Source: a virus
Taxonomy: Duplodnaviria > Heunggongvirae > Uroviricota > Caudoviricetes
IMG/VR virus record: IMGVR_UViG_2740892439_000009
DNA length: 64,000 bases
Direction: 5' to 3' (one strand)
Shown here: positions 1-38,452 of the stretch, piece by piece
How the letters are laid out: each line of letters begins with the position of its first letter
How positions within the stretch are numbered: the stretch's first letter is position 1
Position numbers and translations under genes: made by a program
The notes under the pieces: model-generated
Seen by the model: only the letters and a program-made list of their open reading frames with translations
Told to the model about the DNA's origin: nothing
Databases searched by the model: none

Positions 1-3000
1 GCCGGCAGTTACGTGATCGCGCATTACAAAGCCTTCGTGAAAGTCAATGCTGATACCACCATCACTATGGCACCAGGGTCTCGTGTTTTTGATGATACGG
101 GCGCCGTGTACGTGAACGGTGTTAGGGTTGCCTTTGGTAATGCGAGCTGGAATACGGTTAGCTTTGATCTGAAAGCTGGCTGGAGCACGGTTGAGTTCTT
201 GGTGAACCAATGGACTGGTCAGGCTTACATTAACCTCGGCTTTAAACTGTCCGAGAAGGTAGCCCAGCTGAATTCTGCTCTTGGGATGAACGCGCTTTCG
301 AATGCCATTAGCGCCGTCACCTCAAACGTCAGCACCGTAGGTGATCGCGTCACGAGCACCTCACAGAGCGTTACTGACCTGCGAAATAGCCTCGAACAGA
401 CCAACGCAAATCTAGCGAATAAGGCAGATGCACAGGCGCTGTCTACGCTGCAAAATACGGTCTCCAAGCAGGGGGATACGATTTCCAGCCAGGGTAACAG
501 CATCACGAACCTGAATAACACCCTGACCGCTGCCAGAAACGCCGGTGACAACCTGATCCCGAACTACGATTTCCTGCAGGGTGCAACTGCGTGGGATATC
601 CAGTATCCGGCGGGCGTCGCTTTTGGCAACTTCGGTGATGGTAAGGCTGGGGTTAAGCTGAACCGGACGACCACGACCAGCCCAGGCATCTTCTCCAACA
701 ACAACAAGCCGCTGCCGCTTAATGGTCAGCGCAAATATCGTGTTGTGGTTAAAGCCAAGGGCGTGTCCGGGGCGATGAACATGTTGATCCGGCGCCAGAA
801 CAAAATCGGCCAGACCGACAGCAATTATGAAGATAAAAACGTCACACTCACCAGTGAGTGGCAGACCATTACCTGGGAAACTGGGCTTACTGCCTCTAAC
901 GCTGATGGTCAGAACTTTAAGCTTTACGCGCACCCGGCTAATGCCGAAATCTGGGTTGATACCTTTAAGGTCTTTGATATCACGGATGAGGTGAAGATCA
1001 AGGCTAATAGCGATGCGCTGTCTACGTTGTCGAGCACGGTGACGCAGCAGGGTGACAAGATCACCAGTCAGGGCAACAGCATCACTAAGTTGACCAATGA
1101 CCTCGAAGTCGCTGACGCAAACATCGCGAAAAAGGCCGATCAGTCGGCAGTCACTACGCTGACAGGTCGGGTAGAGAAGACGGAGTCCGGTCTGACGGCG
1201 GCGAACAGCAACATTACGTCGCTCAGCAGCTCTCTGAACCAGCAATCCAAACGCGGCGCCAATCTGCTTCCTGATGGCACTTTTGAAAGCTACGCGGTTG
1301 GCCATAATCTATCAAATAATCGCGTTATCGTGACCACTGATGACTCGCATGGCGGTAGTAAGTGCATCCGTGTGACGCGTCCGAATGATTACAACGCTAA
1401 CGCAACTGATAACAGCGATAATCACATTTTCAGCGGGTTCCAGGTTCGCGATAACGCAGTCTTCTATATGGAATGCTGGGTTAAGCTGGATGCCAAGAGC
1501 ACCGCTATGGCCGAGAATGCGCAGATCTCCATTGGCTTGTCGCTCCAGTATCAGGATAACTCCTGGCAGTGGCCAGCAGTAACCAAAGCGGCGAAAGATC
1601 TGTCTACAGCTCAATGGACGAAGGTTTCTGGTTACCTGAAATCAACGAAGAGCGGTATTAAGCAGGCAATGGTGAGGATTTCTATTCCTAACGTTAGCAG
1701 CGTTAAGGCGGGAAACTCATTCCTCATTGATGACCTGGTCATTACCGAAGTGACTGATGCCTACAATGCGCAAAGTACAGCAGACGCTAATGCCAATGCG
1801 ATTTCGACACTGGACTCGACCGTCTCCCAACAGGGTGACCAGATCACCAGTCAGGGTAACAGCATCACCAAACTGACAAATGACCTGGCAACGACCAATA
1901 ACAACGTCAGTAAAAAAGCGGATCAGAGCGCTTTAAGCGTGTTGTCCGGGCGCGTCGATCAAACAGAATCGGGCTTATCCTCTGCGAATAGCAGTATCAC
2001 TGCGCTTAATTCATCTGTACGCGCAGGGAATGCGACAAGTGGCGATTTGATTAGCAACCCGACATTTGACCCAGAGTTTAGTCAGATGGGCTTCACTGTG
2101 GTTTCCAGCTCGTCTGAGGGCGTGCCAGCCAATTGCCCATACGCTTATGTTGCACGCATTGCGGCTCGCGACCATCACCCCAATTTTGCTGCTATTCCGG
2201 CGACATTGGGGGATGTCTATGAAATGTCTGCTCTCGTCGCGTGTGGCACCGGCTCCGCTGATTTCAACCTGTATCTCGGAACCGCAACACGGCCAAGCGG
2301 CAGCGTGGGCGCGCCTCTGTCATCCGGCGGCAACCGCAAGGCGTCGGCCACATGGCAGCGAGTAACCTGGCGATTCAAAATTACTCAGGGGATTGTCGAT
2401 CGCGGCTTCTTCCGTCCATTCCTGCAAATTAACCAGTCCAGCCCATTCGGCACCGTCTGGTATGTGACTGACTGGCATCTGCGGAACGTGACCGACTCCT
2501 CCAAAGTCCAGGATTCCCTCGACGCCACGGCGAAAGCGGTTGATTCGCTGACCTCTACGGTAAATCAGCAGGGGGAGAATATCTCCAGCATTGGTACACG
2601 TACTACCAATCTTGAGAATAATTTGAGAACAACAAATGCAAACGTTGCTCAAAAAGCGGACGCCAATGCTCTGACGGCACTGACCAACCGTGTTACCCAG
2701 ACCGAAAAAGACATTAACTCAACGAGTTCTTCTGTCACGAATCTGAACAACAAGGTTGATGCCATTTCTGTTGGCGGTACAAACCTGATTAAGAACTCTG
2801 GCGATATGACCGGCTGGTCGAACGTTACCAGCGACACGTATCGTGGTAACGCGGTAATTGGCGCAACTGTAAAAGCCGGCTCCGGCTACAAGGATCTGCG
2901 GGAAATCACGCTTGAGTCGCCGGTCGATGCAGGTGAGTACGTTTACAGCTTCTATGCAAAAGGCGGTGTTGCTGGCCAGATTATGACGGCGTTCTTCTAC

Positions 3001-5424
3001 AATCCGAACACTACAACGTCTATCGAGACCAGCCAGGGTGCGAAAGGTAACAACAGTGATGGCCGTGCGCAGTTCACGCTGACCACTTCATGGTCCCGCT
3101 ATTGGGTTAAGTGGAAACAGACACCTACCACGAGTACCAAGCGCCTGATTCTGTGTCGTATCGAGAGCAATACCTCCAAAGACCAGACGGTGTACATCAA
3201 CAGTCCGAAGTTTGAGGTAGGTAACGTTGTTTCCGACTGGAACGAGTCTCCGTCTGATAGTGCCAGTGCGTCGGCTGTGGACTCGCTGACAACGAAAGTG
3301 AATCAGCAGGGCACTTCCATTAGCTCTATCGGAAATCGCACCACATCGTTGGAAAACGGGTTATCGACAGCTCAAAACAATATTGCCAAGAAGGCTGATG
3401 CTTCTGCATTGCAGGATCTCCGGAACACGGTGACATCTCAGGGTGATGATTTAACTGCGGCGAACAGCAGCATTACCAGCCTGCATGCCTCGATGAACCG
3501 TCGCACTGTGTTTACTGTCACTGCACGGGGTAATGGCAACAGCGTTACCCATGGGGTGTTTGATGAAAGCGGCAAGAATCTGTTTACCCCTGGTCGCAGC
3601 TGGGCGCTGGTCACTTTTGCAAAACACAGCGACGGATCAACGGTGATTGCGACCTCCAAAACATACGATGTCTTTGGCAGCGCGAATAATGGCGCCACGA
3701 TGTCGGCTGATATCGAGGCACTGGCCAGTGGGACTTACGTTTGCGTCCTGACATTCGATGAGCCAACTGGCAACCGAGGTAAGGTGTTGTCTGCCCTGGA
3801 ATCTCTTGGTGGCACTTCCGAAGTCGTTAACTCTCTGCCGTATCGTGGCGCCTACATTCTCCTTGGCCGCAAAGGTATGAAGCCGGGCGATGGTCTGGAA
3901 CTGCGTGCGCCAACCGGTGGCGACGGCACCGCCCACATTTCGACCTCAGTCGAGTTTGTGAACGGGGTAATGATGGGGCTGGGCGCCGCTGGTGGTGTGA
4001 TGATGAAGGCTGATGCGAACGCATCTGCAATTACCACGCTCCAGAATACAGTGAAGACCCAAGGGGATAATATTGACTCCCTGAGCTCCTCGACAACAGC
4101 GCTGGAAAACAGCCTTGCGTCCAGTAACGTCAGCGTGGATGCAGCAAGCCAGATCCCCGGTAACCTGATCGTAAACCCGTCTTTTGAGCGTGGTACGGAG
4201 GGCTACACTGGTTGGAGCGGTATTGCCACGGTGGCAACGCTGCAGGTTCCACATCTTGGCACCAAAGCCGCCAAACTAGCGGCGGGTGGTTCTGCAGGCG
4301 TGGGCCAGAAGATCTCCTTCAAAAAGGATCGGTCGTACAAAATTGGTATTTGGGCAAAGCAGGACCCTAATACCACCATTCAGTCGACCGACAACACAAA
4401 ATTCCGTGTGGCTGACGGTACTGGCCTGATTGCAAGTAAGGTTTATGGTCCGTTCACCTCGAACTGGCAGGAGGTGTCATGGACATGGAAGGCGACAAAG
4501 GATGTCCTTGCTGACGTTCAGTTCACTGCTTTCTTGTCAGCCGGCGCGATGTACTTTGATGATTTTTACGTCGTCGATGTGACCGACTCAGTTGAAACTC
4601 AGGCGAACTCGAGTGCGATCACGAAGCTCGATAGTCGTGTGACCAAGACAGAGAATGACATCACCAGCCAGGGCAGCCAGGTTACGCAACTTAAGAATGA
4701 CCTTGCTACCACAAACACAAATGTTTCGAAGAAAGCGGATGCAGCTGCGTTAACGGCATTAACGAACCGCGTCACGCAGAATGAGAAAGAAATTGGAACC
4801 CAGAGCAGCCAGACAACTTCGCTCAAAAACTCTTTGAGCACTGTTCAGGCAATGGGAAGCAACCCGTGGTTTGATGGTTCTCTGGAGACGTACTCCGAAA
4901 ACCAGCAGATCAGCGGCTCGCGCGCGGTCGTCGTCAGCTCTCAGAAACGAAGCGGAACGAAGTCGTTGCGTGTTTCCCGCGGCGCCGGTGAGGGCGGAAA
5001 CAGCGATAAAACCATCGGTAAGTGGATTGCTCTGCGTGAAAATGCGGTATTCCGCATTGAACTCTGGGCGATGATGCCGGCAGATCAGTCGCCATCATCC
5101 GGGTGGTCAACGCTCGTTGGTTTGCAGACCCAAAACGCTGCCAACAACAATAACTGGCCGACGGCAATCACTATCAATGAAGCCGCATTGGGTGCAAGAG
5201 GCGCATGGAAGAAATTCACCGGTACGCTCCGTGTAGCCGCTGGCCACACTCGCGGCGCATTTTGGGTATCTACCGCGGCACAACTGGCACTGGTACACCG
5301 GGGTATGATCTGTATATCGATGACGTTGTTGTCACCGATATCACCGACGCAAAAGAGGCTCAAGATTCGGCTAATTCGAACGCATCCGCGCTCACCAGCC
5401 TTACCTCACGTGTTACCAATGTAG
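1..5424 (+). CDS. Lateral (L-shaped) tail fibre protein, LtfA-like; 5'-partial upstream segment, frame lost near 5270
   Basis: Frame open from base 1. About 8 diverged tandem modules, each with a coiled-coil stretch (QQGDxITSQGNSITKLTNDL..KKADQSAL) followed by a beta-rich domain ending in (F/Y)xDDxxVxDVTD. The last ~50 codons of this frame look like nonsense. Confidence 0.75.
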   Translation, partial: AGSYVIAHYKAFVKVNADTTITMAPGSRVFDDTGAVYVNGVRVAFGNASWNTVSFDLKAGWSTVEFLVNQWTGQAYINLGFKLSEKVAQLNSALGMNALSNAISAVTSNVSTVGDRVTSTSQSVTDLRNSLEQTNANLANKADAQALSTLQNTVSKQGDTISSQGNSITNLNNTLTAARNAGDNLIPNYDFLQGATAWDIQYPAGVAFGNFGDGKAGVKLNRTTTTSPGIFSNNNKPLPLNGQRKYRVVVKAKGVSGAMNMLIRRQNKIGQTDSNYEDKNVTLTSEWQTITWETGLTASNADGQNFKLYAHPANAEIWVDTFKVFDITDEVKIKANSDALSTLSSTVTQQGDKITSQGNSITKLTNDLEVADANIAKKADQSAVTTLTGRVEKTESGLTAANSNITSLSSSLNQQSKRGANLLPDGTFESYAVGHNLSNNRVIVTTDDSHGGSKCIRVTRPNDYNANATDNSDNHIFSGFQVRDNAVFYMECWVKLDAKSTAMAENAQISIGLSLQYQDNSWQWPAVTKAAKDLSTAQWTKVSGYLKSTKSGIKQAMVRISIPNVSSVKAGNSFLIDDLVITEVTDAYNAQSTADANANAISTLDSTVSQQGDQITSQGNSITKLTNDLATTNNNVSKKADQSALSVLSGRVDQTESGLSSANSSITALNSSVRAGNATSGDLISNPTFDPEFSQMGFTVVSSSSEGVPANCPYAYVARIAARDHHPNFAAIPATLGDVYEMSALVACGTGSADFNLYLGTATRPSGSVGAPLSSGGNRKASATWQRVTWRFKITQGIVDRGFFRPFLQINQSSPFGTVWYVTDWHLRNVTDSSKVQDSLDATAKAVDSLTSTVNQQGENISSIGTRTTNLENNLRTTNANVAQKADANALTALTNRVTQTEKDINSTSSSVTNLNNKVDAISVGGTNLIKNSGDMTGWSNVTSDTYRGNAVIGATVKAGSGYKDLREITLESPVDAGEYVYSFYAKGGVAGQIMTAFFYNPNTTTSIETSQGAKGNNSDGRAQFTLTTSWSRYWVKWKQTPTTSTKRLILCRIESNTSKDQTVYINSPKFEVGNVVSDWNESPSDSASASAVDSLTTKVNQQGTSISSIGNRTTSLENGLSTAQNNIAKKADASALQDLRNTVTSQGDDLTAANSSITSLHASMNRRTVFTVTARGNGNSVTHGVFDESGKNLFTPGRSWALVTFAKHSDGSTVIATSKTYDVFGSANNGATMSADIEALASGTYVCVLTFDEPTGNRGKVLSALESLGGTSEVVNSLPYRGAYILLGRKGMKPGDGLELRAPTGGDGTAHISTSVEFVNGVMMGLGAAGGVMMKADANASAITTLQNTVKTQGDNIDSLSSSTTALENSLASSNVSVDAASQIPGNLIVNPSFERGTEGYTGWSGIATVATLQVPHLGTKAAKLAAGGSAGVGQKISFKKDRSYKIGIWAKQDPNTTIQSTDNTKFRVADGTGLIASKVYGPFTSNWQEVSWTWKATKDVLADVQFTAFLSAGAMYFDDFYVVDVTDSVETQANSSAITKLDSRVTKTENDITSQGSQVTQLKNDLATTNTNVSKKADAAALTALTNRVTQNEKEIGTQSSQTTSLKNSLSTVQAMGSNPWFDGSLETYSENQQISGSRAVVVSSQKRSGTKSLRVSRGAGEGGNSDKTIGKWIALRENAVFRIELWAMMPADQSPSSGWSTLVGLQTQNAANNNNWPTAITINEAALGARGAWKKFTGTLRVAAGHTRGAFWVSTAAQLALVHRGMICISMTLLSPISPTQKRLKIRLIRTHPRSPALPHVLPM

Positions 5425-6581
5425 AAGGGCAGGTGACATCCCAGGCGTCTCAGCTGTCCTCTTTGACGTCCCAGGTGAATGATGCGTCTTCGAAGGTTGA
5501 TCAGATGGCGCAAACCATCACCAACAACGAGAAAACGCAGTCGTCGCTGAATACCAGCTTGCAGTCGCAAATTGATGCGCAGGCATCGGCAAACATCAAG
5601 AACCAGACGGAGTTGAATAACGCCACCACTTCGATGGCGGCAATTAAATCAACTCAGCAGACTCAGGCCACAACGATTAGTGCACTGTCTCAGCAGCAAA
5701 CGAATTTAACGGCCCAGGTAGGAGGCCAGTCAGCCGAGCTGCAGGAGCTGAAGAAAACGGTTGTTGAAAACGGCAACGTTAACAGCACCTGGATGGTCAA
5801 AATGGAAACCAACAGCAACGGTAAAAAGTATGCTGCTGGTATAGCTTTAGGTATCGATGGCAAAAATTTGCAGAGCCAGTTTCTGGTTCAGGCTGATCGC
5901 TTCGGCTTAATCAACACCTCTAACGGGAATACGACTACACCTTTCGTTATCGAAAATGGCGTTGCGTATATTAATGCCGCTGTCATTAAAGATGGCTCGA
6001 TCACCAATGCGAAAATTGGAGGCGAAATCCGTTCTGACAATTTCGTTAATGGTTCAAATGGCTGGAGAATTGGAAAAGACGGTAGTTCACAGTTCAACAA
6101 TGCGATATTCAGAGGTCATATTGAAGCGCGCAGTGGTACGTTCAAAGGAACCCTGGAAGCTCAAAACTTTATTGGTGATATCGCTGTAGCTCGGCGTTAT
6201 GCGGATTTATCGTTCCGTCGTAACAACACCGTACAGCGTGATGGTCGTTACCAGAACCGCGGATACGGTATGACTATTGTGCTAAGTTGTACCCTGATAT
6301 ATCAGGTTACTGGGGGGAATGAGGATCGTAACGGTTATATTGTTGAAATGACATTTAACGTTGGCGGTCAGGAGGTAACTCGCCGTTTCCCGATCAACCC
6401 GCGAATGAATATGGGCTCCTACTCGATGGAGTTTCGTTTTGCAGCGGATATTCCAGGCAACTATGACAACGTCCCGTTCTTTGTAAGAGCACGTGGTCGG
6501 GATGCTACTTGGGACTACCAGTGTTATGTAGAAAACATCACTGCCACTGCTTTCCGTACAAACAGCAACTCATTCAGCTAA
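5205..6581 (+). CDS. LtfA continuation in the -1 frame (C-terminal coiled-coil and distal tip domain)
   Basis: This frame carries the expected module end TGTGTPGYDLYIDDVVVTDITDA, then a further coiled-coil repeat and a beta-rich C-terminal domain. A hairpin GGCGCCCC..GGGGCGCC follows the stop. Confidence 0.7.
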   Translation: MEEIHRYAPCSRWPHSRRILGIYRGTTGTGTPGYDLYIDDVVVTDITDAKEAQDSANSNASALTSLTSRVTNVEGQVTSQASQLSSLTSQVNDASSKVDQMAQTITNNEKTQSSLNTSLQSQIDAQASANIKNQTELNNATTSMAAIKSTQQTQATTISALSQQQTNLTAQVGGQSAELQELKKTVVENGNVNSTWMVKMETNSNGKKYAAGIALGIDGKNLQSQFLVQADRFGLINTSNGNTTTPFVIENGVAYINAAVIKDGSITNAKIGGEIRSDNFVNGSNGWRIGKDGSSQFNNAIFRGHIEARSGTFKGTLEAQNFIGDIAVARRYADLSFRRNNTVQRDGRYQNRGYGMTIVLSCTLIYQVTGGNEDRNGYIVEMTFNVGGQEVTRRFPINPRMNMGSYSMEFRFAADIPGNYDNVPFFVRARGRDATWDYQCYVENITATAFRTNSNSFS

Positions 6582-6637
6582 CATGGCGCCCCTTTGGGGC
6601 GCCCACTAAACCGTATTAACTCAAGGAAGAGTAAATT

Positions 6638-6708
6638 ATGGCAATGTATGAAGTTGGCACCATAACGGGTGCTGCAAACCAGGCAAAGGTTACAGGTATT
6701 TCCACTAA
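6638..6708 (+). CDS. N-terminal segment of second tail fibre (LtfB-like), separated from the body by a -1 frame change
   Basis: ATG preceded by AAGGAAG; encodes MAMYEVGTITGAANQAKVTGISTK, a fibre-like N-terminus. The downstream ORF in the -1 frame opens exactly here. Confidence 0.45.
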
Positions 6709-8076
6709 GTGTCGGAGACCGCCCTGGGTATTCAAGAGGGTTCGATTCTTGTCATTTATCGCAATGGAAGTGCCGATCTGTATGCCATCAAATCCGTTAA
6801 TAACGACACTCAACTGACCCTGACGAGAAACATTACAACAGCTTTTTCTGGTGCGAAATATGGAATTATCACATCAGAAACAGCCAGCACATCGTCTTTT
6901 GCTAATCAACTCGCCAGTGCATTCACTCTGTGGCGTAATGTTGTCCAGGGGTGGTCTACAGCACTAACAGGTAGTGGCAATATTACAATAACAGACCCTT
7001 TAACGGGTGTATCTGTGACTGTTCCAGCAATTTCAGGAATGGCGAAAGCGTCCGATCTCACAGCACTTAGCAACTCGCTGAAAGATGTAGCGAAGACTAC
7101 AACGGCAAACACATGGACGCAGGCGCAGACGTGGAACGCAGCATCTACGTTTAAAAATAACCTTACGGTGAACGGCACTTTTACAGTAAATGGGAATTTC
7201 TACGGCAAGCAGCTTGCTGGAGGCCACATAGAGTTAACAGGGGCGACCCCTTATATCGACTTTCACCACGGCAACACCACAACAGACTACACACATCGAA
7301 TTATTACTGAGAATGGGGCATTGGCTGTTTATCCGGGCTTACGCGTCCGTGGTGGATTGGGGATTTATGGTGTAGCTACGCAATACGGAGATCAGTACGG
7401 GCAGGGATTTATCACCCGTCTTAACACAGATCCAGGTAACGTAGCTAACGGCACAATCATTGCCTCTCCACGCGTCACAACTAGGTTCAACACTCGCGGC
7501 AGTGACACAAATGTTGACGGCGGACAGGGGGCCATGTGGTTTGAGGAGCAGGTGGGGACGAACCATAGGCTGGTATTCATGCTTGGTGGTTTCAGTCAGC
7601 CTGTCCAATATTGGCAACACTTGCCTGATGGGCGGATCTATAGTAGTTCTCGCGGCGATGTTGCATTTAACGGGACGTCCGACGAACGGTTGAAACATAG
7701 TATAGAACCGACTGACGGCCATTTGTCAGTCGATCGCATTCGTCAGCTTGAGCTGGTGACGTTCGTCTATAACGATGACGAGCAGGAACGAGTACGCCGC
7801 GGGATTATTGCGCAGCAGGCTCAGCTGGTCGACAAACAGTATGTTAAGCAGATTAACACATCGTATATTCTCAACGGTGAGAAAGTGGACGATGACCGTC
7901 TGCAACTCGATAATAACGTTATTCTAATGGATACATTGGCGGCGGTTAAAGTACTGATTCAGCGAGTTGAAGAACTTGAGAATAAACTTAACTCATCAGA
8001 AGGGAGCGACGCCATAAATACAAACCAGAATACCTTCGATACAGGCGTGGCCATGAGAAGTGAGCAATCAAATTAA
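6709..8076 (+). CDS. Tail fibre protein with C-terminal intramolecular chaperone (peptidase S74-type) domain
   Basis: C-terminal SDERLKHSIEP..IRQLELVTFVYNDDEQERVRRGIIAQQAQ matches the autoproteolytic chaperone signature of phage fibres and endosialidases; glycine-rich beta region upstream. Confidence 0.8.
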   Translation: MSETALGIQEGSILVIYRNGSADLYAIKSVNNDTQLTLTRNITTAFSGAKYGIITSETASTSSFANQLASAFTLWRNVVQGWSTALTGSGNITITDPLTGVSVTVPAISGMAKASDLTALSNSLKDVAKTTTANTWTQAQTWNAASTFKNNLTVNGTFTVNGNFYGKQLAGGHIELTGATPYIDFHHGNTTTDYTHRIITENGALAVYPGLRVRGGLGIYGVATQYGDQYGQGFITRLNTDPGNVANGTIIASPRVTTRFNTRGSDTNVDGGQGAMWFEEQVGTNHRLVFMLGGFSQPVQYWQHLPDGRIYSSSRGDVAFNGTSDERLKHSIEPTDGHLSVDRIRQLELVTFVYNDDEQERVRRGIIAQQAQLVDKQYVKQINTSYILNGEKVDDDRLQLDNNVILMDTLAAVKVLIQRVEELENKLNSSEGSDAINTNQNTFDTGVAMRSEQSN

Positions 8077-8154
8077 TTCAATTCGTATGTAAGTGCTTAC
8101 CTACAATTAGTTTCTAATTTATGATATAAATCTGCCATCCGATTTGACTTATTC

Positions 8155-9841: not shown

Positions 9842-10234
9842 ATGCACAACGCACTGAACGCATCCCGTTCTATACAAACGATCCGTGATTGCACGAGCGT
9901 TATTGAGACTCATGTGCTGGCTCAGCACAAGATTGAAGTCCGTAAGCTCAACAATGACGCGGTTGATCTAAAAGACACTCGCTTCATCATCACCTTTAAA
10001 AATGATGTTGAGAAGCCGTGTGCCAGCGTAAAGCCGTTAGCGGAAGCAATCTTCCTGAACGGACGTGTACGTTTTGTCGTAAAACCTGATAAGCAATACC
10101 CTGAATTTTTGCGTCATTTAAAAGAGTTTTCTGAGGTGATAGAACATTCTATTCGTCGCTTCGTACTTGGTCATGGTAGCATTAGTAGTCATGTAAAGGC
10201 TGATAGATCTGCTACCAAATGGCTCCTACACTAG
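9842..10234 (+). CDS. Hypothetical protein
   Basis: ORF with SD-like GGTGGAAACATG; no recognisable motifs. Confidence 0.45.
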   Translation: MHNALNASRSIQTIRDCTSVIETHVLAQHKIEVRKLNNDAVDLKDTRFIITFKNDVEKPCASVKPLAEAIFLNGRVRFVVKPDKQYPEFLRHLKEFSEVIEHSIRRFVLGHGSISSHVKADRSATKWLLH

Positions 10235-10971
10235 ATAGCTCATACTCTAAAGATCTTAGCGAGTTTCCTCATAAAGGGGAGACTCTTGTATCTCGTTTCG
10301 GTTACATAATCAACGAAGCCTCTCTCTTCAAAATTTCTGAAATCACCATTGTTGATCCCGAAGATGATATAGTTTTGTACACCCGGATAGAACGGGTTGG
10401 TGCGCTTGATCAGGATCAGTTGATGGAGTTCATCTTGGACAAGGCTGATGACGATATTCCTGAAGAGGATATCATCAGAGAACTTCTTCGCTCCGGTATA
10501 ATCGATGAAAGCAAAAATTCTATAGTAGGCAGAATTGCCTTGCGAGAATACAGCTTCGTTGAAGATGGAAATGAGGTTGAATGCTACCAAGTGGCAGGTG
10601 TTGAGACTGTGAAAGCTATTCGTCAGAGAGGGCTGTGCCATCGCACATACCTGTTCTTGCTTCACTGGTACGAACATCTAGTTTGTGACGATATGCAGAC
10701 AATCCCTGGTGCTAAGATCTGGGCAGGGCCTCTCATGCGAACCGGCGATGTGCGTATATACAATGCCAAAACAGAAACGTTCGAGGATGTGTTAGGTGAG
10801 TACGGGATGGGGAAAGAAACCGGATTTTTGCCGTGGAACAGAGGATTGTTGCTTGATGCAGAGTTAAGCTCTTGGCTCCCAAACAAAGTGCAAGTTAACG
10901 TTCAGAAATTTATCGTACTTATCATCTCCCGCAAAACAAGAACTCCAGTAGGTTTATACCTAAAAGATTAA
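10219..10971 (+). CDS. Hypothetical protein
   Basis: Overlaps the upstream ORF by 16 nt (probable operon); followed by a strong terminator. Confidence 0.5.
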   Translation: MAPTLDSSYSKDLSEFPHKGETLVSRFGYIINEASLFKISEITIVDPEDDIVLYTRIERVGALDQDQLMEFILDKADDDIPEEDIIRELLRSGIIDESKNSIVGRIALREYSFVEDGNEVECYQVAGVETVKAIRQRGLCHRTYLFLLHWYEHLVCDDMQTIPGAKIWAGPLMRTGDVRIYNAKTETFEDVLGEYGMGKETGFLPWNRGLLLDAELSSWLPNKVQVNVQKFIVLIISRKTRTPVGLYLKD

Positions 10972-10976
10972 AAATA

Positions 10977-11002
10977 AGGCGACTTTGGTCGCCTTTTTTG
11001 TT
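10977..11002 (+). terminator. Rho-independent terminator
   Basis: GGCGAC..GTCGCC hairpin followed by TTTTTT. Confidence 0.6.
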
Positions 11003-11147
11003 AACAGCCATTGATTCTCGCCTAAAAATTCTAAGGCAGCACCTACCATTTAACCTTTACACCACAGCCGTAGGCATTTAGGCTATATCACATATAAGAA
11101 AACAAGTTGTTTCAGACGATAATTATATACGCAAAGGGAACTCTCCA

Positions 11148-15116: not shown

Positions 15117-15159
15117 CTAATACTAGAAAACAATTTGTTTAAAAAACAAAGGAAAGCAC

Positions 15160-16098
15160 ATGACCGAACTTTGCCATACAGGACGCGGGCTGTCCGAAGA
15201 GTTTGATGAAGATTTCCAGAACAGACTGACGGCATATTTTTGTCGTGATCACGAGTTTCTTACTCGTGCGGGAGATCTGGTTGTGCCTAGCCAATTTGCC
15301 AATGCGGCCAATGCCATATTGGTTAATATGGTTTCGGGCTATTACCGTATGTACAAGAGCGCGCCTTCTTCATCTGCGATTCTGGATATGCTTAAGCGCG
15401 CGAAACGCGATAAGACCATCCGTGAGGAACTCTTCCCGGATGTTGTTGCTGCGTTTAAGCGCATCCTTGCAGAAAAATTGTCTGATACCTCGTACATGGT
15501 TGACCAGGTATCCACATTCGCAAAAAGTGTAGCGTTTGATGATGCTCTGATTAAAGCTGCTGAACTGAAAGAGAAGGGCGACTTTCAGGGGGCGATGGCA
15601 ATCATGGCCAAGGTTCAGCAGATAGGCTCGAACGAAGCGACCGGAATCTATGACTACTACACCTCCGCAAGTGAGCGATTGAAAGCGCGTGAATATGAGG
15701 CTTCAGAGGAGTATGTGCCAAACAGCATTACAACTGGACTCCCTCTGCTTGATAGATTGCTGTACCAAAAAGGCTGGGCGAAGCGTGAAATGGTGCTCTT
15801 CATGGGGTTCGCTAAATCCGGTAAATCGACCGCAATGGGTGAGTTTTCCATAAACGCAACACTTGCTGGCTACAATGTTCTGTATCTCTCGCTGGAGGTT
15901 CACACCACCATTTTATCCGACCGTTTTGATGCAAGATTGTCGGAGACAGAAATGTCCAGGCTGGTGGAACGGCGCGATGAGGTTCATCGTAAGTTGGCAG
16001 AGTTGGGAGCACGAAGGGGATTGGTAGTTTGTGGGTGGTTGAGCGTCCGTCAGGAAGTATGTCACCGGCAGATCTGGACCGTATGCTTAACAGCATGA
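15160..16098 (+). CDS. DnaB-like replicative helicase, N-terminal segment with Walker A (frame lost near 16020)
   Basis: ITTGLPLLDRLL..GFAKSGKST resembles the DnaB Walker A region; conserved start context AAAGGAAAGCACATG. Confidence 0.75.
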   Translation: MTELCHTGRGLSEEFDEDFQNRLTAYFCRDHEFLTRAGDLVVPSQFANAANAILVNMVSGYYRMYKSAPSSSAILDMLKRAKRDKTIREELFPDVVAAFKRILAEKLSDTSYMVDQVSTFAKSVAFDDALIKAAELKEKGDFQGAMAIMAKVQQIGSNEATGIYDYYTSASERLKAREYEASEEYVPNSITTGLPLLDRLLYQKGWAKREMVLFMGFAKSGKSTAMGEFSINATLAGYNVLYLSLEVHTTILSDRFDARLSETEMSRLVERRDEVHRKLAELGARRGLVVCGWLSVRQEVCHRQIWTVCLTA

Positions 16099-16499
16099 AA
16101 GCCAACGGCATGGTGCCTGATATGGTTGTTGTCGACTACGCAGATTTGATGCGTGCCAGTTATGACCTTCGTGATGATCGCGCCAACATTCGTAGTATCT
16201 ACACCGATTTACGTGCTCTTTATGACAAACATAACGTTGCTGGAATCACGGCATCGCAGACAAACCGTGAAGGTGGCGCGTCAGAAGTTGCCACAATGAT
16301 GCACGCCGCCGACAACATCGAAAAAGTACGTATTGCTGACCTGGTAATAACGATCAACAAAACCGAAGAAGAAGAAGCGAAAGGAGAGGCTCGTCTCTAC
16401 TTTGCTGGTTCACGTAACCAGCAGGGAGGGATCAGCATTCGTGTTAAACAAAACCTCGAACAAATGCGCTTCATTGAGCGAATCTTAGACGTTACCTAA
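16029..16499 (+). CDS. DnaB-like helicase C-terminal segment (-1 frame)
   Basis: DMVVVDYADLM and QTNREGG motifs typical of the DnaB C-terminal RecA-like domain. Confidence 0.7.
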   Translation: MWVVERPSGSMSPADLDRMLNSMKANGMVPDMVVVDYADLMRASYDLRDDRANIRSIYTDLRALYDKHNVAGITASQTNREGGASEVATMMHAADNIEKVRIADLVITINKTEEEEAKGEARLYFAGSRNQQGGISIRVKQNLEQMRFIERILDVT

Positions 16500-31285: not shown

Positions 31286-34200
31286 ATGAAGGCACTGATG
31301 GTTCGAACTGACTTCTCACTTGGGGAGTCGGCTTTAAAAGCAGAAAACGCGGTGAAGATTGCCAGAGAAGCTGGCTACACCGCTGTAATTTCAGCAGATA
31401 GCATGAATATTGCGAGCGTTATTCCACTACAACGTGCCGCTGGTGACGACATGGCGGTTATTTGTGGTGTGAAACTAAACATTGTTGATGATCCCACATA
31501 CGAGCACCGGGTTAAACTTGCTAAAGAATCTATGAGATGTATGGAATCATTAGAGCGGGGACGTAACTACTCGTTTACCGCTCTAATTAAAAATGAGCAA
31601 GGATATCGCGACATCTGCGAACTAATGACGGTGGCCAACACACGAGAACAGTTCTACTTTGTACCGCGTCTCTCGCTCGAACAGTTGGTTTCTACATATG
31701 CCAAAGGCAACATCATCCTGCTCACTTCCGACATCGGTAGCGTGTTCCAACGCAACGATTTTGCAAAAATCATAAGCTCACTGATTACAGCGGGCGGGAA
31801 AGACAACTTCTATAGCGTGGTTTATCCGCACCCTACCCCATTCTACGACCAGATTAACGTCCGGGCGATGAAAGTCGCCAGCGCATTGAAAATAGAGCCA
31901 GTGGCGTTCTATCCCGCTTATTACGAATCGATCGACGATGCAGACATTAAAGACATTGCGCACATGGTTACGAACAACATAAAAATCGACCAGCCGCATC
32001 GTCTGCGTATCCCCCACCAGCGAGATAACGCCATCAATGGTCGTCGCCATCTCCTTGAGGCGCTTAAAGCCTTCTCCGTTCGCATGGATGTGCCGGTAAC
32101 AGCTGCAATGGCCTCAACAACGCAGGACTCCATTATCGATGCCTGCACATGGCGCTGGCATGAATTGCCACCAGCACTGCCCAAGATGGCAGACGACGAA
32201 CCTGCAACGCTGATGAAACTGGCTGTTGCAGGGCTGCGTAAACGTCTTACCACAAAAGAGTTTGGATACACACCACCTGCTTCTGAGAACAGGGTTTATG
32301 TTGAGCGGCTAAAGTACGAAATGGACACGCTGACTCGCCTGGGATTCTGTGGTTACTTCCTGATGGTACGCGATCTGATGAATCACAGCCGTGAAACTGG
32401 CATTCCTGTCGGGCCTGGTCGTGGTTCCTCTGCCGGTTCTCTGGTGGCGTGGTGCATAGGCATAACCAACGTCGACCCAATCCGTCACGGTCTTCTGTTT
32501 GAGCGTTTCATCAACCCTGAGCGTCTCGACTTGCCGGATGCGGACTTGGACTTCAGCCAGGCACGTCGCCATGAGGTGATCGAGTATCTGAATGAACGCT
32601 ACGGCGAAGATTACGTTGCAGGCATTCCGAACTTCACCTATCTGGGCGCGGCATCTGCGCTGCGTGACACTGCACGTATTTACGGTGTCGATGCTGCGGA
32701 TATGGCGGTATCCAAAGAGTTCAAGAATATGGAGGACGACAGCCTGTCTCTGGAAGAGCTGCGCGAGCAACTGGCCAGCCTGGACAAATACGCCACGAAA
32801 AACCCGGAAGCGTTCAAAGCGGCGTGTAAGCTGCAAAGCCTGATGCGTGGTTTTGGTCGTCACGCTGCGGGGATGATCGTCGCTGGCGTTCCATTAGTAG
32901 AGCGCACGCCCGTCGAGCTGCGTGGCAATGCTCGATGTATTGCGTTCGATAAACGTTACTGCGAGGCGATGGGGCTGATTAAGTTGGACGTTCTCGGTCT
33001 GGCAACACTCGATCTTCTGGATAGCGCGAAACGCTACATCAAAGAGAGTACCGGTGAATACATCAATCTCGACGCTATCCCACTGGACGATCGCAAGGTT
33101 CTGGATGGGTTCGCTGCAGGGTACACGCAGGGCGTATTCCAGCTGGAGTCCGGCCCCATGCGTAAGCTGCTTAAAGATCTGGGCGGTGGCATCGAGCCAA
33201 TGAGTTTCAAAACCGTTGTCGCAACTACCGCCCTCTTCCGACCGGGACCGATTCAATCCGGCATGTTGGATGACTATGTTTCCGTTGCGAAAGGATTTAT
33301 GACGCCTACATCACTACATCCTGTCTTGGATGAACTGACCTCTGAAACAAATGGAGTGATTCTCTATCAGGAACAAACGATGAACGCAACAAGGCTTCTT
33401 GCTGGTTTCACAATGGCCGAGGCGGATGGTGTGCGTTCAGCAATCGGTAAGAAGAACATGGAAAAGATGAGGAGCATGGGTGAGAAATTTGTCATTCAGG
33501 CTCAAGCTGGGTGGATCGACGTAGAGCTTGAAAATGGCGCAATACAACGGATTCATCGCGCAGAACATTTTAAATGCGAGGACGGTACTCTGAGGACAGT
33601 TGAAGAGGCGTTGGAGCATGGAGTGAAGCTGCCAATGCCAGTTGTGCGCGTTACAACGTCACATCCAGGTCTGTCTGAGACGAAGGCAAAAGAGATATGG
33701 ACTGCATTTGAGAAAAACGGAGCCTATCAGTTCAATAAATCACACTCCGTTGCTTATTCTTTAATCAGTTATCAGTCTATGTGGCTAAAGACGCACTACC
33801 CTGCTGAGTTCTTCGCAGCTGCGCTCACCATTCTGGGCGAGGATAAGCATCAGGGGCTGGTGAAGGATGCGCTGACCTATGGCATTCGCGTATTGCCACC
33901 AGACGTTAATGTGTCATCTAACCGAATTGAGATCCGCACACTCGAAGACGGCAGTCAGGCACTGTATGCGCCATTCTCTGCTGTGAAAGGCTGTTCTGAA
34001 AATGGTTGTCAGGCAATTATGCGTGCGCGTGAGAAAGTTGGTGGCAAATTCGAGTCAGTGGCACAATTCGATGAAGCGGTCGAGAAGCGTGCATGTAACA
34101 GTCGTGTACGCGAGTCGCTTCATAAAGTAGGGGCTTTTGCGTCAATTGAGCCAGGCAGTCTGCCAGCAACTGATCCTGAACGACTGCGCGACCAGGCTGA

Positions 34201-34804
34201 GCTGATGGGCAATCTCATCATTGACGCTGTTAAAGCATCACGTCCGTTCGAAATGAATCCTAAGCGTTCTGCCGAAATCAACGTACTCATGACACGTATG
34301 GCGGCTGAAATGGGCTTGGGTGAGGAGTTGATACGCCCGACTATTGGTATTAAACCCAAAATCATGATCATTCTGGACAATGCGAACGGCAATGACGCTC
34401 GTACCGGCTACTTCATGGAGAACGGATACGACGACTTTAAGGCAAAACTACTGACAGTTGGAGATCTGCGCATGGGCGATCTTTATGTCACGGGTGTTTG
34501 TAAGAAGGTTAAGGACAAAGAGAAAGACTATACCAAAGACGAGATAGGCCAGTTCACAGACTTTATGCGGGAAGAAATTAATCTTGTACGACCAACCTAC
34601 ATTTTGACGTGTGGTAGTCGTTCAACCGCACTATTTAACAATAAGAGTAAACCATCAGATCTGATTGGTCGTAAGGAGTACTTCCCAGAGCTTGATGCAA
34701 CCGTCTTCTACGGATTTAACCCGAATATCCTGTACTTCCGACCGGAAGAAGGAGAGCGACTGGAGGCCATTCTGGCTGATATCGCGGAGACAATAAATAA
34801 GTAA
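31286..34804 (+). CDS. dnaE: DNA polymerase III alpha subunit (DnaE-type, family C) with extra internal and C-terminal segments
   Basis: PHP N-terminus; core motifs GFCGYFLMVRDL, GPGRGSSAGSLVAWCIGIT, ATTALFRPGP, AYQFNKSHSVAYSL; 1172 aa. Confidence 0.9.
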   Translation: MKALMVRTDFSLGESALKAENAVKIAREAGYTAVISADSMNIASVIPLQRAAGDDMAVICGVKLNIVDDPTYEHRVKLAKESMRCMESLERGRNYSFTALIKNEQGYRDICELMTVANTREQFYFVPRLSLEQLVSTYAKGNIILLTSDIGSVFQRNDFAKIISSLITAGGKDNFYSVVYPHPTPFYDQINVRAMKVASALKIEPVAFYPAYYESIDDADIKDIAHMVTNNIKIDQPHRLRIPHQRDNAINGRRHLLEALKAFSVRMDVPVTAAMASTTQDSIIDACTWRWHELPPALPKMADDEPATLMKLAVAGLRKRLTTKEFGYTPPASENRVYVERLKYEMDTLTRLGFCGYFLMVRDLMNHSRETGIPVGPGRGSSAGSLVAWCIGITNVDPIRHGLLFERFINPERLDLPDADLDFSQARRHEVIEYLNERYGEDYVAGIPNFTYLGAASALRDTARIYGVDAADMAVSKEFKNMEDDSLSLEELREQLASLDKYATKNPEAFKAACKLQSLMRGFGRHAAGMIVAGVPLVERTPVELRGNARCIAFDKRYCEAMGLIKLDVLGLATLDLLDSAKRYIKESTGEYINLDAIPLDDRKVLDGFAAGYTQGVFQLESGPMRKLLKDLGGGIEPMSFKTVVATTALFRPGPIQSGMLDDYVSVAKGFMTPTSLHPVLDELTSETNGVILYQEQTMNATRLLAGFTMAEADGVRSAIGKKNMEKMRSMGEKFVIQAQAGWIDVELENGAIQRIHRAEHFKCEDGTLRTVEEALEHGVKLPMPVVRVTTSHPGLSETKAKEIWTAFEKNGAYQFNKSHSVAYSLISYQSMWLKTHYPAEFFAAALTILGEDKHQGLVKDALTYGIRVLPPDVNVSSNRIEIRTLEDGSQALYAPFSAVKGCSENGCQAIMRAREKVGGKFESVAQFDEAVEKRACNSRVRESLHKVGAFASIEPGSLPATDPERLRDQAELMGNLIIDAVKASRPFEMNPKRSAEINVLMTRMAAEMGLGEELIRPTIGIKPKIMIILDNANGNDARTGYFMENGYDDFKAKLLTVGDLRMGDLYVTGVCKKVKDKEKDYTKDEIGQFTDFMREEINLVRPTYILTCGSRSTALFNNKSKPSDLIGRKEYFPELDATVFYGFNPNILYFRPEEGERLEAILADIAETINK

Positions 34805-34807
34805 TAA

Positions 34808-34836
34808 AGAAAACCCGCCTGTTGGCGGGTTTATAA
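34808..34836 (+). terminator. Rho-independent terminator
   Basis: AAACCCGCC..GGCGGGTTT hairpin. Confidence 0.6.
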
Positions 34837-35107
34837 AGAATTATGGCGCTTGTTGAGGAAGTCACTCCTCTTACGCACTTTGTTTTGCCATGCCGGCAGT
34901 TAGCTTCTGCCTTTGACTATTCATGCGGCAACCCCGCATTTCGCCACAATGGGCAATTCACTTTTATGGAATAAACTGGCCGTTGTGTCGATTTAATTAG
35001 CATGGCCTTACCATGCTAATTTATTCAACTTGTACAATCCTACAAATCTATCCACTCAGGCTTACACCGTCTTCGTTATTGTAGAAATGAGGATCATCAG
35101 CGTTGAA

Positions 35108-35323
35108 TCAGCTTAGAGCAACGACATTTGCTGCTGCTGGGCCTTTAGCCCCATTCTCGATAGAGAATTCGACCTGCTGGCCTTCTTCCAAAGTGCGGAA
35201 ATTATTACTCTGAATTGCCGAAAAATGTACAAAAACATCTTTACTGCCATCAGCAGGAGAAATAAAGCCAAAGCCTTTATCAGAGTTAAACCATTTTACT
35301 AAACCAGTCATTTTATTAGACAT
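35108..35323 (-). CDS. cspA: Cold-shock protein, CspA family
   Basis: [38 protein letters not shown] is near-identical in pattern to E. coli CspA; SD AAGAAGG; long upstream leader; terminator-like hairpin near 34995-35020. Confidence 0.85.
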
Positions 35324-35652
35324 AGATATTACCTTCTTAATTTTGTGAGCCACATAGTGCGGCGAGAATTTGATCTGTATAGATTGGGACTTACTTAGGC
35401 ACTTAAGGAGGAGACTCACGAAGAAGGGAAATCAGAAGATAACACTGAACTGAGACTGCTTTACTAAAACTGCTTACATAAGGTCTGTCTTGCAAACCAA
35501 CGATGCTATTAACGCATACCCCTTCTTTTCATGCAACCTTTATTTTTCAAAGATAACTAATTTTTGTCACCATTGGTTTAGTAAACGTTAACGAACCAGA
35601 CGATGCCAGACACCTTTACAGAGAACAGATGCCCGCCAATTGGCGGGCATCA

Positions 35653-36216
35653 TTATGCGCATTTCGCAATATCTTTGCGGCGTTTAATCAGTTTCTCCGC
35701 AATTTGCTCTATTTCGTTGAAATCTTTCGAGACGCTGTTTCGAAGCGCCAGATTCCATTTACTCAAAGTTCGGGCATTTTGGACAATTTGATCGCCCTCT
35801 TTAAGTCGTCCGTTATTCATGAGCCATTCAGCCACATCAGCCCAATCCCAGAGAGGAGACTGGCCTTTTATGCGTTGTACAGGGCAAGGGAAGTCGCCGC
35901 TTCCGCGCTTACCGTCTTTGAGCAACGCCACTGCCTGGCGAGACAGGTCTGTCAGTTCCGCGATATCGCTTAAGCCCACAAGAGCCGAGTCGACGGATTC
36001 AACAATTGCACCGATACCGGCTGATTCAATATTGTCGACCGCAGATGCGATAGCTGCATCAAGTGATTGTGCTTCGCGGTCAAATTCTACATAGACGGAG
36101 TTTCCATATGCGCAAATTAGCGCATCGTCACAGCCGTTTTGGTACAGCGCGTCTTCCAGTCCTTCCGTCTCATACGATACGCCTGAGAGCGTCAGAGTGA
36201 AGTTATAAAGCGCCAT
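35653..36216 (-). CDS. Hypothetical DNA-binding protein (C-terminal HTH-like region)
   Basis: ATG at 36216 with AAAGGAA SD; C-terminal segment LSRQAVALL..LWDWADVAEW resembles small phage HTH regulators. Confidence 0.4.
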   Translation of the reverse strand: MALYNFTLTLSGVSYETEGLEDALYQNGCDDALICAYGNSVYVEFDREAQSLDAAIASAVDNIESAGIGAIVESVDSALVGLSDIAELTDLSRQAVALLKDGKRGSGDFPCPVQRIKGQSPLWDWADVAEWLMNNGRLKEGDQIVQNARTLSKWNLALRNSVSKDFNEIEQIAEKLIKRRKDIAKCA

Positions 36217-36276
36217 AGTTTTCCTTTGAAGATAGTTGGACAGTTTCTGCAAAAGGCGGCTAATGCCGCCTTGAAA

Positions 36277-36501
36277 TCATTTACAACGATCAACCATTCG
36301 TTTGATCTGTTTGGCATGGTTTTCGGGATTACCCGGAGTCGACCATACGCTCATTTGGTGAGTTTTGTGTTCACCTTCTGGATTACCGCATCGCAGTCTG
36401 CAAAAACAATGTGCAGCACCACCAGCTGCTACCCAGATCCAGCCTTTACTTAATGCATAGTCAATGGCTGCTTGAATATGCTTATTCGGATGTTGCTTCA
36501 T
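36277..36501 (-). CDS. Hypothetical Cys/His-rich small protein
   Basis: 74-aa ORF with GGAGG SD. Confidence 0.45.
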   Translation of the reverse strand: MKQHPNKHIQAAIDYALSKGWIWVAAGGAAHCFCRLRCGNPEGEHKTHQMSVWSTPGNPENHAKQIKRMVDRCK

Positions 36502-36755
36502 TCGCCTCCGATAATAGTATTCTATTCACAGTGTTGACATCTGTCAACGGCGACTGAATTTCATCCGTTCATGCCACACCCCCATCCATCTCATGTATGT
36601 GACCTAAAGATGGTCAGCACAGCTTACCAAAATAAGACAACTAATTATCTTCGGTGATCTCAACATTTTCCCCTGAACAAAGTTGACATGACGCCATAAA
36701 CCCGTTCTCTGTTTGATATAATTGATACAGATTTTATAAGTAGGAACTTATTAGA

Positions 36756-37187
36756 ATGAACACTGATATTTTTTCTAAAATCATGGCTGATCTGGAGTTC
36801 GACCGCGACAACCTTGAGGAAGTATGGCGTAAGCAGCCACGGCTTTTAATGGAGTATGGGTCAAAACTAGCGCTGGCAGATCGAGATGTCGCAGAGGCAA
36901 AACTTAACCTTGAAGCTGTTGAAGCAAAGCTATACGACACAGAGCGTAAGAACTTGAGTATGAACGGCATTAAGTTCAACGAGTCTGTACTGGACGCTAA
37001 GGTTAAAACAAACCCACAGTATCTGTCTAAACGGCAGAAGTTGGATGAAGCACGGCACATCGCAGACATATACAAACATGCTGTCGCCGCCTTTTCGCAT
37101 CGCCGAGACATGATCGTTCAGGCGTCGAAGATGGCTATCGTTGAATTAGAGCGATTAGGCTCTGAACGCTTTATTTCTCCCCGTTGA
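36756..37187 (+). CDS. Hypothetical protein; possible UvsY-like recombination mediator (weak)
   Basis: About 140 aa, helical, sits next to the SSB and RecA-like genes; suggestion rests on size and context only. Confidence 0.3.
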   Translation: MNTDIFSKIMADLEFDRDNLEEVWRKQPRLLMEYGSKLALADRDVAEAKLNLEAVEAKLYDTERKNLSMNGIKFNESVLDAKVKTNPQYLSKRQKLDEARHIADIYKHAVAAFSHRRDMIVQASKMAIVELERLGSERFISPR

Positions 37188-38333: not shown

Positions 38334-38350
38334 TCCCATTACGTGACCAG

Positions 38351-38378
38351 TAAGGCGTCTACGGACGCCTTACTTTTT
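38351..38378 (+). terminator. Rho-independent terminator
   Basis: GTAAGGCGTC..GACGCCTTAC hairpin followed by TTTTT. Confidence 0.6.
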
Positions 38379-38452
38379 GGAAGGAGTGTACCGGTGAATT
38401 ATCTCTTCGTAGATGGCAATAGCTGGGTTATTACCACCAACAATCTGACAAA

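Follow-up and report, generated by a model that had tools for sequence, protein, structure and literature searches.

The window analysed here is a stretch of 64,000 nucleotides from a tailed virus (Caudoviricetes; IMG/VR record IMGVR_UViG_2740892439_000009), and its first 8,076 bases raise the question of which host-recognition apparatus is encoded by a giant, repetitive reading frame that is cut by the start of the window and followed by a second fibre gene. A reading of this DNA from its letters alone (hereafter the sequence-only reading) had proposed a giant lateral tail fibre, LtfA, joined to a downstream fibre with a Peptidase_S74 (S74) chaperone domain in a branched two-protein assembly. 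We consider it highly probable that the locus instead encodes a modular central fibre of the type of lambda gpJ together with an S74 side fibre, that the central fibre has a putative role in contacting surface glycans, and that the frameshifts present in both genes stem from sequencing errors.

The giant gene and its source element

Bases 1-6581 of the plus strand correspond to the 3′ 54% of a gene for a gpJ-type central tail fibre. In translation, a very long plus-strand reading frame is open at base 1 and has no start codon, which upholds the earlier view that a giant modular host-recognition fibre is truncated at the 5′ end of the window. Bases 1-8100 share 99.3% nucleotide identity with the Escherichia coli plasmid pECAZ155_2, in which the homologous coding sequence is unbroken and encodes 4,052 residues. 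The intact gene encodes 4,044-4,056 residues in four Klebsiella phage-plasmids, and the missing 5′ part, which lies outside the window, amounts to 5.6 kb. Plasmids with a match number 397, of which 388 are from Klebsiella. The downstream lysis, partition and replication genes of the element resemble their SSU5 counterparts, and on sequence grounds we assign the element to the SSU5 supergroup ('pKpn'-type) of phage-plasmids; the present copy is the E. coli variant.

The domains of the giant protein and the gene order around it point to its identity. Within the window, a Phage_Tail_Tip domain (DUF1983, PF09327; bases 5748-6140, plus strand, residues 1917-2047) is detected with E = 1.1e-42 (145.5 bits against a cut-off of 22), and the last 430 residues resemble solved J-like tail-tip proteins (best match 23gd_D, E = 1.4e-28, followed by 9l9p_S and the F2 pyocin fibre), the C-terminal part also matching lambda gpJ itself (8iyk, E = 4e-12). 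In the region that lies outside the window, the same open reading frame (ORF) in pJN2-26 opens with FNIII-A_GpJ and Phage-tail_3 domains (E = 3e-31 each). The gene context, read from the relatives, is equally lambda-like: in pJN2-26 and pECAZ155_2 the J gene stands immediately 3′ of the tail-tip assembly genes, in the order Phage_min_tail, Phage_tail_L, NLPC_P60/JAB, tail assembly protein I (homologues of gpM, gpL, gpK and gpI) and then J, an order that recurs in another assembly. When scored on PHROG profiles, the pECAZ155_2 protein reaches 1,146 bits on PHROG 31 ('central tail fiber J') and 4,491 bits on PHROG 2589, a tail-protein family with a profile of 3,686 positions. Judged by its domains and neighbourhood, the giant protein is a homologue of lambda gpJ, the tip attachment protein or central tail fibre, and not a lateral fibre. 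The intact 4,052-residue protein is laid out as a gpJ hub of about 830 residues, 11 units, a last coiled coil, the Phage_Tail_Tip domain and a lambda-J-like receptor-binding domain.

This assignment bears directly on the branched lateral fibre of the kind found in T5 and DT57C, in which a giant LtfA would sit on the tail collar, the S74 fibre would be joined to it as LtfB and two receptor-binding tips would result. The downstream protein does share the S74 chaperone domain with T5 pb1, and two consecutive fibre genes superficially resemble the ltfA-ltfB pair. However, it is only through its chaperone domain (query residues 313-430) that the second protein resembles pb1, whereas the giant protein combines J-specific domains with a J gene context, scores on PHROG 31 and gives no match to pb1 anywhere along its length at E <= 1; moreover, the tail-tip genes are homologues of gpM, gpL, gpK and gpI rather than a T5-type set. 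The name LtfA is accordingly dropped, and we give the lateral-fibre alternative hardly any credence. Nothing supports the branched two-protein fibre either: in Ur-lambda, the closest solved case of a J fibre with side fibres, the latter are fastened to gpV/gpM, rather than to the central fibre, by a collar at their N-terminus (PMC12617516).

A further alternative is a polyprotein: the giant product would be cut into several smaller proteins of the virion, as has been proposed in print for the 2,309- and 3,201-residue homologues in S8 phages of Klebsiella (Beamud et al., PMC9989827), and the unit structure would permit cleavage between modules. Yet domain and PHROG scans found no protease domain or cleavage motif in the giant protein, and the hub, Tail_Tip and receptor-binding domains must stay joined for J-type function, as they do in lambda. 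We regard cleavage of this sort as very improbable.

Within the window the J gene is not a continuous ORF. Frame 1 ends at a stop at 5424, and its C-terminal tail reads like out-of-frame text; a frame-3 ORF at 5205-6581 resumes the repeat pattern ("...GYDLYIDDVVVTDITD..."), and a third ORF, at 6709-8076, lies again in frame 1. The gene can be followed on the plus strand in frame 1 over bases 1-5274 (residues 1860 to about 3617 of the 4,052-residue protein) as far as a site at 5273-5274 that reads CC here and CCC or CCA in all eight relatives compared, so that the window is one base short; from 5275 it continues in frame 3 to 6581, with its stop codon at 6579-6581. Once one C is added back, the gene encodes 2,193 residues here, and these share 99.1% identity with residues 1860-4052 of the pECAZ155_2 J protein. 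The more than 2100 residues given by the sequence-only reading do not form a continuous ORF in the window. The side-fibre gene is likewise short of one G at about 6711, hence the only ORF listed for it has a GTG start at 6709.

The two sites belong to a wider pattern. Across the 55 kb that can be aligned with pECAZ155_2 at >=97% identity there are 12 isolated one-base deletions (at 5272, 6710, 16009, 28877, 31240, 31260, 38422, 41050, 43361, 51999, 53325 and 61057), half of which turn AGCC(C) into AGC(C), two of these six within CCTGG (Dcm) sites. The deletions disrupt at least four ORFs found unbroken in relatives, namely J, the side fibre, a DnaB-like helicase (15154-16493) and a 5′-3′ exonuclease (38334-39334), the latter two each divided between two frames, at about 16009 and 38422, respectively. 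Because ten further single-base deletions occur elsewhere in the window, the frameshifts in J and the side fibre are most likely systematic sequencing errors, and split genes anywhere in the window are suspect for the same reason.

Two other explanations of the frameshifts were considered. A programmed frameshift at 5274 was rejected, since there is no slippery heptamer at this site, the ORF is intact in the 99.3%-identical relative and in seven others, and like deletions occur elsewhere in the window. Alternatively, the frameshifts might be genuine, in which case the phage-plasmid would be in decay, non-infectious and, with both of its host-recognition genes lost, maintained as a plasmid only. 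Both adsorption genes are indeed disrupted in this sequence, assembly GCA_024651025 likewise has its J gene in three ORFs, and defective phage-plasmids have been reported in the literature. What speaks against such decay is that one-base deletions of the same type number 12 in 55 kb, with AGCC to AGC as a recurring context, that they also strike genes of replication and DNA metabolism (the helicase and the exonuclease), and that the J and side-fibre proteins are otherwise 99-100% identical to intact copies, without further decay; we consider genuine loss of the two genes improbable.

Truncated records of J are common in the databases, where dozens of homologues are 'partial' proteins of about 2,260-2,300 residues. 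The sole one of these that was checked (P0079) starts where its contig does, 279 bases ahead of the first base of the window, and assemblies may tend to break inside the repetitive J gene.

Repeat units and their folds

Seven units (U1-U7), each composed of a helical segment and a beta-domain, lie in the window, preceded by the tail end of an eighth beta-domain. The sequence-only reading had counted about eight tandem units of coiled coil plus beta-domain; the diverged repeats are real, and the count is corrected to seven units plus this partial domain. In the full protein there are 11 units, since a paralogue profile detects two extra CBM_4_9-type domains (CBM, carbohydrate-binding module) upstream of the window and two further upstream beta-domains were recognised by reading the sequence. 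A self-BLAST of the whole protein gave the diagonal match only, and the units were therefore cut out and compared pairwise. BLASTP then matched unit with unit at E = 1e-8 to 1e-34, with 37-57% identity among the helical halves and 26-33% among the beta-domains, and the hydrophobic period in the helical segments is 3.4-3.5. At the DNA level repeats are weak (one family, 101 nucleotides, 68-75% identity), which argues that the units are old duplications and not recent ones.

Long repetitive proteins of this kind need to be scanned domain by domain: hmmscan with the whole 2,193-residue protein gave no CBM_4_9 match at E <= 0.1, whereas U6 alone, against the same library, matched this family (PF02018) at E = 1.2e-9 (39.1 bits against a cut-off of 25.9). 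U6 (bases 4009-4587, residues 1337-1529; this and all other units are on the plus strand) consists of a short helical segment at 4009-4155 and a CBM_4_9/CBM16 domain at 4156-4587, which also aligns over its full length with the CBM16 crystal structures 2zew and 2zey (E = 2.6e-10). Three other units carry CBM_4_9-like domains that score under the same cut-off. U1 (259-987, residues 87-329; helical segment 259-555 with a hydrophobic period of 3.4, beta-domain 556-987) falls slightly short of it (E = 5.1e-5, 24.1 bits), as does U7 (4588-5348, residues 1530-1783; helical segment 4588-4875, beta-domain 4876-5348), for which the intact pECAZ155_2 copy was scored (E = 3.5e-5, 24.6 bits), the J frameshift lying inside this domain. 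U2 (988-1758, residues 330-586; helical segment 988-1284, beta-domain 1285-1758) scores lower (E = 0.002, 18.9 bits) and is closely related to both U3 (E = 8e-34) and U7 (E = 2e-32). U3 (1759-2496, residues 587-832; helical segment 1759-2070, beta-domain 2071-2496) is a paralogue of U2 whose beta-domain had no Pfam match of its own in the per-domain scan.

The remaining units are of other kinds. U5 (3256-4008, residues 1086-1336) joins a helical segment at 3256-3510 to an ILEI/PANDER-type domain at 3511-4008 (PF15711, E = 1.2e-10, 42.1 bits against a cut-off of 27). The beta-domain of U4 (2806-3255, after a helical segment at 2497-2805; whole unit 2497-3255, residues 833-1085) represents a distinct CBM-like family, with matches in 666 clusters among 1.84 billion representative proteins, often in several copies per protein. 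Its AlphaFold2 model, built from a 45-sequence alignment, has a predicted local distance difference test score (pLDDT) of 95.3, and Foldseek matched it to a phi812 baseplate protein, Tuc2009 BppA, CBM4-2, CBM16, CBM30 and CBM61 with template-modelling (TM) scores of 0.5-0.63, about 0.5 to the four CBMs and up to 0.63 to the CBM-bearing phage proteins; in addition, 12 of the 45 U4 relatives match CBM_4_9 directly. The partial domain at the start of the window, U0 (1-258, residues 1-86), begins upstream and gives a weak Cadherin-like match (E = 0.007, below the cut-off). When U4, U5, the terminal domain and the upstream beta-domains were aligned by hhalign with the profile of the CBM paralogues, no signal emerged (probability <1%).

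Six of the beta-domains in the window are predicted to be CBM4/CBM16-type jelly rolls, five of them from one family and U4 from a second, and one is of the ILEI type. The suggestion that the modules might include carbohydrate-binding folds is borne out by the U4 model and the CBM16 match of U6. A different interpretation is called for in the case of the recurrent D-D-x-x-V-x-D-V-T-D motif, which had been taken for the seam at which each module ends. It is present in five of the seven units and, in the alignment with the CBM16 crystal structure 2zey, falls on the C-terminal strand (NLYVDDVYLVEV); it is the final strand of the CBM fold rather than an inter-module linker, and recurs because the CBM domain recurs.

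Receptor-binding domain, side fibre and exchange among relatives

Beyond U7, a C-terminal coiled coil of about 130 residues (5349-5744, plus strand, residues 1784-1915; heptad period 3.5) gives weak matches to the trimeric coiled coil of the P22 tail needle, gp26, and leads through the Phage_Tail_Tip domain to a receptor-binding domain at 6150-6578 (plus strand, residues 2051-2193), which is an exchangeable cassette. The model of the terminal 153 residues, from a 9-row alignment, has a pLDDT of 80.7, and its top folds in the PDB are those of lambda gpJ bound to LamB (8xcj) and A8 gpJ bound to OmpC (9wcb), together with 8xck and 9wca, the four with E = 6e-6 to 9e-6 and TM scores of 0.52-0.57; among viral models it matches J central-fibre proteins and generic C1q/TNF-like jelly rolls. 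A word-indexed homologue search with this domain returned 7 short proteins only, and tblastn against phage and plasmid collections was more informative. Seven E. coli phage-plasmids carry the domain at 97-99% identity and 50-kb Klebsiella phages, for example KpV522 and PKP126, at about 80%. BLASTP at E <= 1e-5 gave no match to it among the close relatives compared from Klebsiella phage-plasmids, even though their CBM units are 91-100% identical. This distribution indicates that the terminal domain is a cassette swapped relative to the Klebsiella relatives.

The side tail fibre gene occupies 6638-8076 (plus strand), beginning at an ATG at 6638 (MAMYEVGT...), where relatives also begin this ORF; with the missing base restored it encodes 479 residues, the listed ORF at 6709-8076 forming the remainder of the gene. 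The corrected protein is 100% identical to that of pECAZ155_2 and matches PHROG 1980 ('tail fiber protein') at E = 7e-101. Its C-terminal Peptidase_S74 intramolecular chaperone (7678-8073, plus strand, with the Pfam match spanning 7678-7845) is detected by PF13884 (E = 1.8e-11, 44.6 bits against a cut-off of 22; residues 324-379 of the listed ORF) and aligns with residues 948-1072 of T5 pb1 (8hqz_d, E = 3.5e-16), so that the S74 domain recognised in the sequence-only reading stands. A serine and a lysine lie five residues apart at the predicted cleavage site, S348-D-E-R-L-K353 in the numbering of the corrected protein, with which the S74 domain opens, and we take these two to be the catalytic pair, by their likeness to Ser911 and Lys916 of endosialidase.

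The first 120 residues or so of the side fibre are 95-100% conserved among the phage-plasmids and the remainder is 27-82% identical. The fibre of EKq1, a phage of the S8 group, has an N-terminus unrelated to these 120 residues. A conserved N-terminus followed by a variable remainder fits a lineage-specific anchor with an exchangeable distal part. Between the two genes, just past the J stop and 37 bases before the side-fibre start, lies a perfect GC-rich inverted repeat, GGCGCCCCTTTGGGGCGCC (6583-6601, plus strand); no T-run follows it, a terminator scan did not report it and its loop differs in relatives.

Comparison of the number and order of modules among relatives shows that these fibres are mosaic and not identical. 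The U3 beta-domain is substituted in pJN2-26, P0012 and P0021, U2 is missing from P0024 and P0110, U3 is deleted in P0027, P0092 and P0117, and the order of units is shuffled in P0114; furthermore, bases 1131-4115 are found at 93% identity in unrelated Klebsiella phages of 45-52 kb. These alignments show that whole-module exchange among relatives is real. Recombination between modules had been proposed as a means of switching host range, and units are indeed lost, replaced and reordered, but it is the terminal domain and the side fibre that vary with host genus, and not the CBM units.

Elsewhere on the element, pECAZ155_2 has an IS100 (istA/istB) insertion (NZ_CP019002.1 100364-102165) that is absent at about position 37907 of the window, and window segments 9845-11041 and about 33470-36777 likewise diverge from this plasmid. 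A tRNA cluster at 22080-22636 comprises Asn-GTT, Tyr-GTA, Thr-TGT and Ser-TGA; at the corresponding place in pJN2-26 tRNA-Asn alone is annotated.

Putative glycan contact and comparison with known systems

How might such a fibre work? We infer that the protein trimerises like other J proteins and that its helical segments would form a long stalk. With all of its approximately 1,290 helical residues fully extended, the stalk would be about 190 nm long, which is an upper bound because the helical segments contain glycine breaks. Three copies of each lectin-like domain would be presented at each level of the stalk and would make weak, multivalent and reversible contact with surface polysaccharide (capsule, O-antigen or the lipopolysaccharide core), and the fibre would pass through the polysaccharide layer without a depolymerase. 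The terminal domain would then bind an outer-membrane protein and trigger infection, as in lambda. The S74 domain would assist folding of the side fibre and cut itself off at Ser348, and the side fibre would join the tail tip via its conserved N-terminal 120 residues and provide a second, exchangeable specificity. Recombination between similar helical segments could gain, lose or swap units.

A bolder form of this model, which we advance tentatively and hold to be rather doubtful, views the stalk with its three kinds of lectin-like domain as a depolymerase-free, multivalent glycan 'ratchet', possibly 100-200 nm long, that reaches the outer-membrane receptor, and in which gain and loss of units would tune both reach and glycan preference in temperate siphophages and phage-plasmids of Klebsiella and E. 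coli. If true, such a ratchet would answer the question raised by de Sousa et al. (2020; PMC7784688) concerning the capsule dependence of Klebsiella temperate phages that lack depolymerases.

Several observations weigh against the overall interpretation of a J fibre with glycan-contacting modules. Each helical segment has glycine-rich breaks and two sub-repeats; the segments could fold back and the fibre could be far shorter than 190 nm. Only U5 and U6 pass the curated Pfam cut-offs, with U1, U2 and U7 below them and U3 assigned by paralogy alone. At TM 0.55 the terminal domain resembles its best fold matches only moderately, and the jelly roll is a common fold. Entry of S8 phages into some hosts is probably independent of binding to capsular carbohydrate (Beamud et al., PMC9989827). 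The CBM units are 91-100% identical across phage-plasmids of E. coli, several Klebsiella species and Raoultella, among which the terminal domain and the distal side fibre differ; this near-invariance argues against the units setting capsule-type specificity, and would fit a conserved glycan target as well as it would a purely structural role. Finally, real pseudogenisation of this copy, improbable as it is, would also count here.

A purely structural role is the essence of another explanation, in which the beta-domains of the gpJ fibre are inert spacers and the stalk, binding no glycan, merely carries the terminal domain through a thick surface layer. It would account for units that are near-invariant across hosts with very different capsules and O-antigens, and for whole units being lost while the gene is kept; the weak capsule-type dependence of phages with this receptor-binding system (Beamud et al., PMC9989827) points in the same direction. 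Inert spacers make it hard to explain, however, why three lectin-type folds (CBM4/16, ILEI and the U4 type, which BppA has as well) recur in this and other J proteins related to it and why the U4-type domain is retained in as many as 666 protein clusters, often with multiple copies per protein. We consider inert spacers unlikely.

The gpJ assignment has practical consequences. About 400 sequenced plasmids from clinical Klebsiella and E. coli carry the gene pair, and phage-plasmids of this supergroup have been reported with resistance genes (PMC9600943; bioRxiv 10.1101/2025.09.12.675607), so that host range affects the spread of resistance. Naming the two proteins as a central J fibre and a side fibre shows experimenters which parts to swap, as it is in the last 150 residues of J and in the distal side fibre, and not in the CBM units, that the versions from E. 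coli and Klebsiella diverge. The CBM array, given its putative function, could explain depolymerase-independent infection of capsulated hosts.

With respect to novelty, a giant J protein with CBMs followed by a second fibre with an S74 domain has already been published for Klebsiella phages, and the kind is known. The window sequence is present in RefSeq under generic names, and a limited literature search found no published account of the full 11-unit map, the ILEI unit or the lambda-like terminal domain; a directed-evolution paper in which EKq1 is mentioned is silent on this protein. Nor is the protein unusually long for a Klebsiella siphophage, as had been suggested: gp21 of phiKO2 has 3,433 residues, the EKq1 protein 3,381, and homologues of gp21 reach about 4,200 residues in Klebsiella prophages (de Sousa et al. 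2020, PMC7784688).

Lambda gpJ itself (8iyk, 8xcj) shares the Phage_Tail_Tip domain and a receptor-binding domain of the same fold and, as seen in near-identical relatives, the FNIII-A_GpJ/Phage-tail_3 N-terminus and the position after gpL, gpK and gpI. The difference lies in size, 1,132 residues in lambda against 4,052 here, with some 2,900 extra residues of alternating helical and lectin-type segments inserted between the hub and Tail_Tip. The same alternation of helical, CBM-type and U4-type segments is detected by profiles in phiKO2 gp21, annotated as 'similar to lambda J protein' and encoded by a linear plasmid-prophage of Klebsiella oxytoca, and U6 is 60% identical to a phiKO2 unit. phiKO2 differs in having 6 CBM-type domains and an apparently recent internal block duplication, compared with 11 beta-domains here, in its N15-like telomere phage backbone and in the absence of an S74 side fibre gene after gp21. 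The duplicated block of gp21, 'U4-type domain, helical segment, CBM domain', occurs at residues 1411-1867 and again at 2621-3077 with near-identical profile scores, as though some 1,200 residues had recently been duplicated within the protein.

Closer in gene arrangement are the broad-range Klebsiella S8 siphophages VLCpiS8a-c, whose first receptor-binding protein has 2,309-3,201 residues and 2-3 CBMs and whose second carries an endosialidase chaperone, no depolymerase fold having been found (Beamud et al. 2023, PMC9989827). In EKq1, a 3,381-residue 'tail protein', in which profiles detect the alternation of helix and CBM, is likewise followed by a fibre gene. VLCpiS8a-c and EKq1 therefore have the same pair, a giant CBM protein and then an S74 protein, and parts of both window genes match these phages. 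In contrast to the phage-plasmids, these are lytic phages of 48 kb; the N-terminus of their side fibre is unrelated, with about 31% identity in the distal part only, and the 2-3 CBMs published for the S8 phages compare with 8 CBM-type domains (7 of the CBM_4_9 type plus U4) among the 11 beta-domains here.

T5 pb1 and DT57C LtfA/LtfB have a C-terminal S74 chaperone in common with the second fibre; the giant protein is unrelated to pb1 and LtfA, and the tail-tip gene set differs. The best structural matches to U4, Tuc2009 BppA (5e7t) and the phi812 baseplate (9euf), likewise place lectin-like modules on a tail-tip protein. In those phages of Gram-positive hosts the modules belong to baseplate proteins or to extensions of Tal and Dit, whereas here they are strung along a coiled-coil central fibre.

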